Position numbers and translations under genes: made by a program. From an uncultured virus (IMG/VR IMGVR_UViG_2841629896_000002) (taxonomy: Duplodnaviria > Heunggongvirae > Uroviricota > Caudoviricetes): a stretch of 64,000 nt of DNA. The notes below the pieces were generated by a model, which saw only the letters and a program-made list of their open reading frames with translations, was not told the origin of the DNA and did not search any database. Below, in pieces: positions 50,149 to 51,667 of this stretch. The DNA lies in IMG/VR virus record IMGVR_UViG_2841629896_000002. One strand, given 5' to 3'. Every line of letters begins with the position of its first letter. The stretch's first letter is position 1.

Positions 50149-50608
50149 TTACGCAGCATCGCTTTCATATTCGCTGTCATCGTCATAATACCCTTCAAAA
50201 TCAGCATAATATTCATGACGGTAATAATCATCTTCACTACCAAATTCGGGATATGCATCATCACAAATATCTTCATTAGCAGTTAAAATTGCCATAGACG
50301 TCAACAAAAAAGCTTTTGATTTTCGCATTTCCGAAAACCCGTGCATTTTGAAAGACGCGCGCTTTATTATAAACCCAGCAATTGCCATCATGAGAGAGAT
50401 TCTCTTCACTTTCAATATAGCCACCTAAGTCCCCTTTTTTGACGTCTCCAAAATCTCTTAAAGCGCGAATTCTATGAAGAGTTTTAAAGCCCACCTCTAT
50501 CGTTTCACCTGTAAATTCGTATTTTTTTGCAGGCTCTTGTTGATTAACAAGCGCGGTTTCATTTGAAATGTTAGAGAGAACGGGGGTGTTTTTTGAGATA
50601 TTTGTCAT
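50149..50608 (-). pseudogene. Hexapeptide-repeat protein with internal out-of-frame deletion
   Basis: N-terminus near-identical to 61417-62058; repeats stop early at 50276; acidic tail ending ESDAA is in another frame. Confidence 0.7.
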
Positions 50609-50654
50609 AATTAAAACCTTGTCGTAATTAAATTTTCTATTAACAGCCTATAGA

Positions 50655-50745
50655 GGCATCGGGTGCTAGAAAACACGGCGACAAGTCCGCTGCTTACACT
50701 TTTCTCATAAAGAGTATTGTATGGTGTAAACACACCCGACAAAAT
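50655..50745 (-). ncRNA. Putative C4-antisense-like regulatory RNA
   Basis: Closing stem GTCGGGTG/CACCCGAT; internal b' (CTTGTCG) and a' (GTGTTTTCTA) complementary to targets upstream (50821-44) and at the RBS of 50608 (50618-39). Confidence 0.6.
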
Positions 50746-51667
50746 CCTCATATACTAACAAAAGTATAAAAGATAGCCAATTTTTAAAAGCGTTTGAAAG
50801 ATTGTTTCGTAATCTATCCGCTTGTCGTTTCAAAGTGTTTTCTAATCACTTGATTATTTATATAACAAAATACATATTTATTGTCAATTAATATTTTATC
50901 TTTTTTGATATTTTTTTGTATTTATTAAATTGCATTATGTATTGATAATATCATGTGCTTATGAATTGCTTCTTTTATATTTATGTGATTTTAAAGCTAT
51001 ATTATGGGCTTTATAAAACGATTGCGTTGTTTTTTGAATTATACATTTATAATATTTAGAAACGCTCTCATAATGCGTATTTTTATCTTTATAACCTATC
51101 AGTTTTTTTCACTAAATGAATTTAAATTTTTTTGTGAATTTTGTTTATAACGCATTTATCATTTGAACTATCTTAATAGGCACCGCGCTCTTATAACCAA
51201 TGCATTCATTTGCATTTTTGCTTTATTCAAACAAAGCTACTATTTTTACGCATTCTCTATAGCTGTTATGTTCTTTATAGCCATGGTGTTATTTTTCATT
51301 TTCATAAGAGAAACGATAAATAGGATATAGGATAATTGCGATTTATAGACTGTTATGAAAACATCTAAAGAGAGATTGATAATTATAGAGATTAGAAAAA
51401 TCCCTTTTAATAGGCTTTTGTTATTTTGATTAGTTCTTTTTAAAAGATAAAATTATATTTTTATTGAGTGATTAACACGTGTCTTATGAAAAGCGTATGA
51501 TCCTTAAAGCCTTTCAAAAGATAGCTTGTAACTCATATGAAATGTATCAAGATCATTATAGTTATGAGTTTTGGGGGTGCTTTTTATAGGTATTATTTTA
51601 TTTTTTTAATTAGAAATAAAAGTTATTATATTTCAATATGTTAACGTTTTAAAGAAACAACCTATAT

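Follow-up and report, generated by a model that had tools for sequence, protein, structure and literature searches.

The 64-kb window examined here (IMG/VR record IMGVR_UViG_2841629896_000002, an uncultured virus of the Caudoviricetes) is part of a 97,543-bp provirus record (G000) and holds an element of ~14 kb that runs on the minus strand from 61358 down to ~47227. Its parts are, in order, a P4-type integrase gene, a DUF3987 gene, a gene for a Type ISP enzyme, 1.2 kb without long open reading frames (ORFs), a short RNA module and an array of YdcK-like beta-helix genes; a second, sister island, collinear with the first and 72-95% identical to it by segment, occupies positions 70197-85749 of the record. 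The RNA module, a candidate antisense switch of the kind known from the c4 locus of phages P1 and P7, is the subject of this report. It lies on the minus strand at 50887-50606 and comprises a promoter-like site, two short sites termed a1 and b1, a leader hairpin, an RNA of ~85 nt with three helices, a 3′ hairpin and a second pair of sites, a2 and b2, as follows.

50859..50887, minus strand: upstream promoter-like site, read from the sequence (TTGACA 50887-50882, 17-nt spacer, TATATA 50864-50859)
50879-50868, minus strand: near-palindrome AAATATGTATTT in the promoter spacer
50835..50844, minus strand: a1, TAGAAAACAC, with 10-nt complementarity to a′
50821..50827, minus strand: b1, CGACAAG, complementary to b′
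50796..50819, minus strand: leader hairpin with stem AGATT/AATCT, directly 3′ of b1, from the minimum free energy (MFE) fold
50752..50780, minus strand: weak internal promoter-like site (TTGGCT, 17 nt, TAGTAT) ending 11 nt before the RNA core, 8/12 consensus positions
50658..50740, minus strand: putative antisense RNA core, from the Rfam sRNA-Xcc1 alignment, our own model R1 (below), the fold and covariation
50740-50732 with 50666-50658, minus strand: closing stem of the core, GTCGGGTGT with GCACCCGAT
Inside the core, minus strand: inner stem, GTTTACAC/GTGTAAGC
Inside the core, minus strand: hairpin 1 (long), carrying the conserved ATACAATAC bulge
50685-50679, minus strand: b′, CTTGTCG, in the 8-nt loop of hairpin 2
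50676-50667, minus strand: a′, GTGTTTTCTA, single-stranded in the fold
50646..50657, minus strand: 3′ hairpin GCCT-CTAT-AGGC, immediately 3′ of the closing stem
50633..50639, minus strand: a2, TAGAAAA, with an exact cognate in 151/184 relatives
50617..50624, minus strand: b2, CGACAAGG, overlapping the AAGG ribosome-binding site and followed, after 8 nt, by the ATG at 50608

In P1 and P7, the C4 RNA is processed from the operon transcript by RNase P and represses in trans. The original prediction had seen the same a1-b1 / b′-a′ / a2-b2 layout in the window, and the positions it gave for a1, b1, the stems, b′, a′, a2, b2 and the ATG proved exact when the minus strand was read again; the layout is also borne out by its conserved position and its co-variation across ~190 relatives. 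What that description lacked is the weak second promoter-like site between b1 and the RNA. The C4 arrangement that we looked for is present, with a1-b1 upstream, b′-a′ within the RNA, a2-b2 downstream and b2 placed on the ribosome-binding site of the first gene. Taken alone, however, the window gives the a and b sites moderate significance, because CGACAAG occurs on its two strands only about twice as often as in shuffled sequence (10 copies against a shuffle mean of 4.5) and TAGAAAAY is not enriched in it (10 found, 8.4 expected), although three of the ten CGACAAG copies fall within the 210 nt of the module, all in the required orientations. The decisive support comes from paralogues and relatives.

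Four modules of this kind occur in the 97.5-kb record; every one has an a′/b′ pair of its own, and a1, b1, a2 and b2 to match. Their a′/b′ keys are GTGTTTTCTA/CTTGTCG (the window module), GTGTTTTTCA/CTTGGTA, GTGTTTTTA/CTGTTTG and GTGTTTCTTA/CTGTGTA, and in all four the downstream b2 merges into the GG of the ribosome-binding site. A pattern derived from the conserved 5′ part of the RNA recovered 115 stretches in viral contigs and at least 127 in reference genomes; among the matches listed for the latter, every record title names Bartonella. The full set came to 196 distinct instances, 184 of them with enough flanking sequence for a test of the sites, and the named records among these 184 are likewise all from Bartonella. 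Exact cognate sites were found at the expected positions in 167 relatives for b1, 167 for b2, 141 for a1 and 151 for a2. In an earlier set of 91 parsed instances the respective numbers were 82 (b1), 82 (b2), 79 (a1) and 80 (a2), with all four sites exact in 64, whereas keys paired with the flanks of other instances matched at rates of 1.1% (b1), 0.6% (b2), 1.9% (a1) and 1.4% (a2). Given the four differently keyed modules and the exact cognate sites in 141-167 of the 184 relatives, the co-variation of the a and b sites is not due to chance. The keys themselves are diverse, with 40 b′ variants, 17 a′ variants and 103 combinations among the 196 instances, while the geometry is stable: key and locks always lie on one strand within ~230 nt, typical offsets from the RNA core are ~-103 for a1, ~-87 for b1, ~+18 for a2 and ~+32 for b2, and b2 runs into an AGGAG or AGGA-type sequence with a start codon 8-12 nt further on in 164/170 cases. 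A test for tolerance of G-U pairs was at most suggestive: 23 of 60 single mismatches form wobbles versus 10 that are the reciprocal transitions, counts uncorrected for base composition.

For the core of the module, 150 out of 175 distinct sequences (the first listed, with the window copy first) were aligned and analysed. Standard pairing occurs in 93.2% of the alignment cells, compared with 33-53% when the partners are slid, and none of 500 shuffles reaches the observed covariation score. Changes on both sides of a pair were found at 7/8 pairs of the long hairpin (helix 2) and at 2/3 pairs of its inner stem (helix 3); the closing stem and the stem of the b′ hairpin are invariant or vary on one side only and are thus neutral with regard to structure. 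The original prediction had named covariation in homologues as a check, and both kinds turned up, between key and locks and as compensatory pair changes within the core. The short transcript of the window folds at -30.1 kcal/mol (z -2.4) into a 9-bp closing stem, the long hairpin and a 4-bp hairpin that exposes b′ in its 8-nt loop, with a′ unpaired. Outside the core, 103/112 distinct relatives can form a 3′ hairpin of 4 bp or more just after the closing stem, versus 27% of shuffles, and the stem of the leader hairpin is altered on both sides in relatives (AGGTT/AACCT), a reading made by eye and without a formal count. A covariance model built from the core alignment, R1, scores the four copies of the record at 100-113 bits, the window copy reaching 99.8 bits at 50636-50742. 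These data indicate that the core is a structured RNA. One further R1 match (49358-49464, 23.6 bits) is a GC-rich hairpin after the second array gene, is unlike the RNA and was discarded.

A related genome of 2.3 Mb (G001) contains 20 R1 matches, and 15 of the 16 that could be parsed have distinct keys. The integrase region of the island has 48 blastn matches in the same genome, at least nine of which are nearly full-length; this genome shows a massive amplification of the element family. Several loci (L107, L028, L039, L069, L108 and L244) carry tandem units that consist of RNA only, in the order promoter, a1 b1, promoter, RNA, spaced ~273 nt apart with no gene in between, and the upstream units may carry a key other than that of the gene guarded in the end. 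Six of the 196 instances are succeeded by the spacer of another unit. To judge from their arrangement, these tandem units look like stacked immunity RNAs directed against other elements, and keys unlike that of the following gene point to action in trans.

A first gene could be assigned downstream of 170/196 instances. It belongs to an Ant-type cluster in 116, which includes a gene of the present record with Pfam Phage_pRha and KilAC domains, and is of the YdcK-like beta-helix type in 51; two are of 103 aa (phrog_33768) and one is an ORF of 36 aa. In the record itself, AntA/KilAC and Rha/KilAC genes are guarded by the two sister modules located at 69310-69400 and 91566-91656, neither of which has icd. 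Most of the family therefore guard antirepressor genes, and ~30%, the window module among them, guard YdcK-like arrays. The proposal in the original prediction that a switch normally set over antirepressors here governs a beta-helix array thus agrees with both groups of cargo, with the correction that the first beta-helix gene at this locus is truncated. The array of the window has three genes.

50276..50608, minus strand: first array gene, truncated YdcK-like, 110 aa, N-terminal domain only, with phrog_5070 and phrog_7964 matches
49427..50062, minus strand: second YdcK-like beta-solenoid gene, 211 aa, with weak Pfam Hexapep and B_solenoid_ydck matches and phrog_5070 at 3e-76
48582..49325, minus strand: third YdcK-like beta-solenoid gene, 247 aa, with Pfam B_solenoid_ydck at 45.7 bits (cut-off 30) and phrog_7964 at 7e-75

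The first of these genes has no Pfam match and aligns to only residues 1-100 of the 265-aa first gene of the sister island, which itself carries the YdcK repeat (PF18836) at 70.6 bits and matches the YdcK chain 2F9C over residues 33-245, N-terminal domain included (E 1.5e-19). In the second, which like the first matches both phrog_5070 and phrog_7964, the YdcK repeat scores 26.2 bits, below the cut-off of 30, and the third also has a Pfam Bactofilin match of 30.6 bits. With 45.7 bits in the third gene and 70.6 bits in the sister island against the cut-off of 30, and with the 2F9C match, the proteins belong with YdcK (PF18836; PDB 2F9C/2PIG). Arrays in the record are made up of recurring paralogue types that can be told apart by their N-termini. 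Both phrog_5070 and phrog_7964 are families of unknown function, and the 3,362 homologues found bear, at best, names such as 'hypothetical', 'phage related' or 'acetyltransferase-like'. The 80 phage records that contain YdcK-like genes come from very diverse hosts, and at the loci inspected these genes stand among early genes. Six of these loci lie outside Bartonella, in phages of Liberibacter (SC1), Mannheimia, Xanthomonas, Aeromonas, Edwardsiella and Acidovorax, and none of the six has a C4-, IsrK- or Xcc1-type RNA nearby. In the Liberibacter phage SC1 (L281, 24841-27097; Rhizobiales), YdcK-like fragments stand in an early operon that diverges from a repressor gene, ends in a Bro-N antirepressor and lies near a P4-family primase. 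With respect to a role in defence, the YdcK-like proteins match no PADLOC model, and the idea that they are DNA mimics was dropped, since their isoelectric points of 5.8-9.1 are not acidic and charge gives it no support. Compared by blastn with 50,697 phage records, the region and a sister module gave only short beta-helix matches and no close relative. An ORF of 91 aa at 50149-50424 was treated as spurious, having neither a Pfam match nor an alignment to the first gene of the sister island.

The promoter signals differ between modules that guard beta-helix genes and those that guard Ant-type genes. A TTGACA motif marks the upstream promoter in 38/48 beta-helix-class relatives, and a 12-bp palindrome, AAATACGTATTT, lies between the -35 and -10 elements (at most one mismatch) in 42/48 of the beta-helix class versus 3/111 of the Ant class. 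By analogy with Oc4 of P1, this palindrome looks like an operator. A strong internal promoter, TTGAC[TA]-N16-19-TAnnnT, directly precedes the core in 81/111 Ant-class members.

Taken together, these observations make it very probable that the locus encodes a P1-c4-type antisense RNA switch over the YdcK-like array. The layout, the RNA structure with its covariation and the co-variation of keys and locks are observed; from these we infer that the RNA exists, that it is processed and acts in trans, that a1-b1 is a decoy and that the array is subject to polarity. We envisage that an RNA of ~85-110 nt arises from the operon leader, either released from it or initiated at the internal promoter, and folds so that a closing stem encloses two hairpins and leaves b′ and a′ exposed, b′ as a hairpin loop of a constant CU plus five variable bases and a′ as a single strand of GUGUUU plus variable bases. 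These would pair with a2 and b2 in the mRNA leader, and pairing at b2 would block translation of the first YdcK-like gene because b2 covers its Shine-Dalgarno sequence; the rest of the array would probably be silenced as well, through polarity. Each module has a pairing code of its own, so that the RNA would serve as a specific 'immunity key', acting in cis and probably also in trans. In long transcripts from the upstream promoter, a1-b1 is most likely a decoy that sequesters a′-b′ and frees the ribosome-binding site, and a processed or shorter RNA lacking a1-b1 would be the repressor form. MFE folds of the 111 instances with all four sites exact agree with this scheme: long transcripts pair a′ with a1 in 89/111 and b′ with b1 in 87/111, short transcripts pair a′ with a2 in 84/111 and b′ with b2 in 75/111, and the long and short transcripts of the window itself follow the same pattern.

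Several results weigh against this reading. The original prediction had named a search with Rfam C4-type models as a check, and the C4 model (RF01695, gathering score 45 bits) finds nothing at E values up to 10 in the whole 97.5-kb record, although it gives the P1 c4 gene, used as a positive control, 68.8 bits. The c4-a1b1 model (RF03163) has no match in the leader, only a chance match of 8.4 bits elsewhere, and isrK (RF01394) has none. The closest model is sRNA-Xcc1 (RF02221), which aligns over its full length (1-87) to 50649-50741 on the minus strand with 39.1 bits (E 4e-05 over 1 kb); this too lies below the gathering score of 53, and no Rfam family matches anywhere in the window at gathering thresholds. 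In addition, a strict consensus promoter scan listed neither the upstream nor the internal promoter, and the strong internal promoter of the Ant class is seen in 1/48 members of the beta-helix class by the strict pattern and in 26/48 with a relaxed -35. The decoy logic comes from MFE predictions alone, and the P1 leader folds otherwise. Contigs from metatranscriptome libraries cover parts of 49400-50823 (one identical contig of 191 nt at 50481-50671, the others from relatives) and say nothing on transcription, ends or strand. Because its first gene is truncated, this particular module may be decaying. Finally, co-variation of direct and inverted copies at the level of DNA would suit the operators of a protein equally well, an explanation weighed below.

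The scores for sRNA-Xcc1 deserve further comment. The three siblings in the record reach 44, 48.2 and 51.9 bits, still below 53, and two of the 20 R1 matches in the 2.3-Mb genome pass with 58.2 and 55.6 bits. The variable positions of the sRNA-Xcc1 model coincide with b′ and a′. On these scores, the window copy is best regarded as a divergent sRNA-Xcc1 relative below the curated threshold, which the Bartonella RNAs straddle, since 2/20 copies of that genome lie above it and the others below. The sRNA-Xcc1 model has no match in P1, and R1 has none in the immI region of P1. In logic and geometry the system is c4; in sequence family it is sRNA-Xcc1. The window RNA shares with that family the AUACAAUAC...GGGGAA core and the full-length alignment, and it differs in its host, an alphaproteobacterium, sRNA-Xcc1 having first been described from an integron cassette of Xanthomonas campestris. 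The available part of a paper on APSE phages lists c4, isrK and sRNA-Xcc1 as separate small RNAs (sRNAs) and places a copy of sRNA-Xcc1 upstream of an ORF6N gene, and that of a paper on Xylella describes tandem sRNA-Xcc1 homologues with predicted plant targets; in these portions of the literature sRNA-Xcc1 figures as a virulence-linked trans-acting sRNA and not as a c4-type lock. A literature search of limited coverage found neither a paper that ties the c4 mechanism to sRNA-Xcc1 nor one that deals with RNAs of this sort in Bartonella.

The surroundings of the module add a second aspect, namely the relation of these RNAs to the islands. The principal features of the element and its integrase-side junction are these.

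52081..57033, minus strand: Type ISP restriction-modification gene, 1650 aa, with Pfam Type_ISP_C at 365.6 bits, ISP_coupler, Mrr_cat_2, ResIII and N6_Mtase
57699-59297, minus strand: DUF3987 protein, from Pfam
60013-61179, minus strand: P4-type tyrosine integrase, from Pfam
Window 57375-57475 and 51591-51703; record 73991-74101, 79730-79816 and 80029-80137: copies of a ~100-nt repeat
61348..61407, plus strand: island junction; the end of the island, ...GTGTTGCTAGC (to 61358), adjoins the remaining 3′ part of a further family RNA
Same junction, plus strand: the RNA remnant, with GCCCGAC, a hairpin at 61366-61379, a2-like TTCAAAAC at 61386-61393 and b2-like TAACTAGG at 61400-61407

The Type ISP protein (PADLOC REase_MTase_IIG, 2069 bits) combines an Mrr-like nuclease, an SF2 helicase, a coupler, an N6-methylase and a C-terminal specificity domain in one polypeptide, as members of that class do. 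With flanks of at least 2400 nt, a Type ISP gene lies upstream of 15/20 beta-helix-class modules versus 0/28 of the Ant class. The stretch of ~1.2 kb that separates the RNA module from the Type ISP gene (window 50850-52080) has no ORF longer than 55 aa, yet is 80-91% identical between the two islands. In each of the two islands, blastn places the ~100-nt repeat on either side of the Type ISP gene; the repeat could mark the borders of a cassette or hold regulatory sites. A truncated, inverted Type ISP copy of 881 aa (44648-47293, plus strand) adjoins the far end of the island; it retains the nuclease, helicase and coupler and lacks the methylase and the specificity domain, which suggests recombination between two inverted islands. 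Next to the island, at 35218-43992 on the minus strand, lies a two-partner secretion (TPS) pair, a 2328-aa TPS/haemagglutinin-repeat protein and a ShlB/FhaC-type transporter.

At the junction, R1 gives a weak, partial match (61294-61388, 14.5 bits), and a further YdcK-like array follows from an ATG at 61417, its genes at 61417-62058 and 62143-63306 both matching phrog_5070. Both in the window and in L253, the 3′ remnant of an RNA gene, with its a2/b2 and a YdcK-like gene behind it, adjoins the integrase-side island end ...AAATCAATGTGTTGCTAGC; in L277-L279 intact RNAs are followed directly by the other arm of the island (GCCACATA...). These junctions suggest that the 3′ end of the family's RNA genes is where islands with this integrase insert. 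Because the island ends copy the 3′ part of the RNA gene, integration would rebuild an intact RNA gene at one junction, and yet it would separate the RNA from its operon. As an exact 20-mer, the island end has only two matches in viral contigs, both unrelated and AT-rich. The second island splits a P2-like tail sheath gene, with the N-terminal part before it and the C-terminal part after it (record 69660-70250 and 85750-86436); judged by eye, the site in the sheath gene resembles the a′/closing-stem sequence and looks like a secondary attachment site.

The same data can be read in other ways. The module might be a purely cis-acting leader switch, without a free RNA, in which a′b′ pairs with a1b1 or a2b2 of one transcript and so sets the ribosome-binding site in the manner of an attenuator or riboregulator. 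The MFE folds do yield one or the other of the two cis pairings according to the start of the transcript, and key and locks do share one strand within ~230 nt; a switch confined to cis nonetheless seems unlikely to us in view of the gene-less tandem units whose keys differ from that of the following gene, the intact RNA kept in L277-L279 where an island has split it from the operon, and the strong Ant-class promoter placed right before the core (81/111). These points still allow cis action alongside action in trans. We consider it highly improbable that the a and b motifs are DNA operators of a module-specific repressor protein to which the RNA structure is incidental. Co-variation is equally expected for such operators, and the wobble count of 23 versus 10 among 60 mismatches, uncorrected for base composition, is no more than suggestive of RNA pairing, but there are 103 key combinations in 196 instances and no variable DNA-binding gene is seen in the modules, their first genes being Ant-like or YdcK-like; moreover, b′ always sits in the loop of a conserved hairpin, the core shows compensatory pair changes and aligns to an Rfam RNA family, and b2 is fixed at the Shine-Dalgarno position.

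Given that islands with the same integrase appear to insert into the 3′ end of such RNA genes, the element might also be a tRNA-like attachment site, or the remnant of one, without any regulatory role. This we find scarcely credible, since it leaves the cognate a1, b1, a2 and b2, the lock on the ribosome-binding site and the conservation of the whole three-helix core unexplained, and islands occupy only 3/20 copies in one genome. The c4-type switch is thus, in our view, real and well supported; it is of a known kind, with an unusual cargo in that it guards genes other than antirepressors on an island that carries a defence gene. What is new here are the ~20 differently keyed copies in one genome, the tandem units of RNA only and the islands that apparently integrate into the 3′ ends of the RNA genes.

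As a tentative synthesis, possible though on balance doubtful, the Bartonella c4-type RNAs may form a combinatorial key-lock system (at least 103 combinations, with ~20 differently keyed copies in one genome) that has two jobs. One would be the silencing of antirepressors and, on P4-integrase/Type ISP islands, of a conserved YdcK-like operon; the other would be to serve, through the RNA genes, as tRNA-like landing sites for incoming islands. If so, expression of the YdcK-like operon would be confined to situations in which its cognate RNA is missing or loses out to the a1b1 decoy, such as entry into a new cell, and the operon would serve in establishment, helper manipulation or counter-defence. 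An incoming island would rebuild the RNA, sever the resident operon from its promoter and so swap in its own, differently keyed module.

Whatever the fate of this synthesis, the switch itself provides a concrete regulatory reading for RNAs that Rfam annotation misses or labels 'sRNA-Xcc1' without a mechanism, and it would extend RNA immunity of the P1 type to a genus of alphaproteobacteria in whose genomes prophages and islands abound. The ~100 seemingly distinct key-lock pairs form a natural library that could be screened for orthogonality, to the benefit of RNA engineering. That members of the YdcK-like family (phrog_5070 and phrog_7964), widespread in phages, occupy the usual regulatory slot of antirepressors offers a handle on the role of the family, and the use of an RNA gene as an integration site, if confirmed, would tie RNA immunity to the competition among mobile elements.

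Among known systems, immI of P1 and P7 is the closest. The P1 record is annotated with two promoters and an operator, with a1 (-88) and b1 (-74), both counted from the 5′ end of the RNA, and with a C4 RNA of 77 nt, a2 (+4) and b2 (+33), and the start of icd falls 11 nt beyond b2; the order of the parts is identical to that of the window module and the distances are almost equal. Both have b′ in a hairpin loop followed by a single-stranded a′ within the closing stem, b2 at the ribosome-binding site of the first gene and an operator or operator-like site at the upstream promoter. They differ in that no similarity of sequence or by covariance model is detectable, and in that the icd-ant cargo of C4 is missing at the window locus, where there is no icd gene and the genes downstream form the YdcK-like array. 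Here, moreover, a promoter-like site lies between b1 and the RNA, while both P1 promoters lie upstream of a1; a hairpin stands between the RNA and a2; and the P1 leader does not fold into the form in which a1b1 pairs with a′b′ as a decoy.

The CI RNA of P4, with its seqA, seqB and seqC, is likewise cut from the leader of its own operon and has complementary targets upstream and downstream, and it acts through premature termination of transcription and not by covering a ribosome-binding site. The present element resembles P4 in carrying a P4-type integrase and a primase-like gene (DUF3987), whereas its operon consists of YdcK-like genes and not of genes for replication or derepression. The third parallel concerns the attachment sites of P4-type integrases, which are tRNA and tmRNA genes. 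As at such sites, the island ends copy the 3′ part of an RNA gene, here a′ and the 3′ half of the closing stem, and integration restores an intact RNA gene at one junction; in contrast to them, the apparent target is a regulatory RNA of phage type, and integration severs that RNA and its promoters from the operon they guard.

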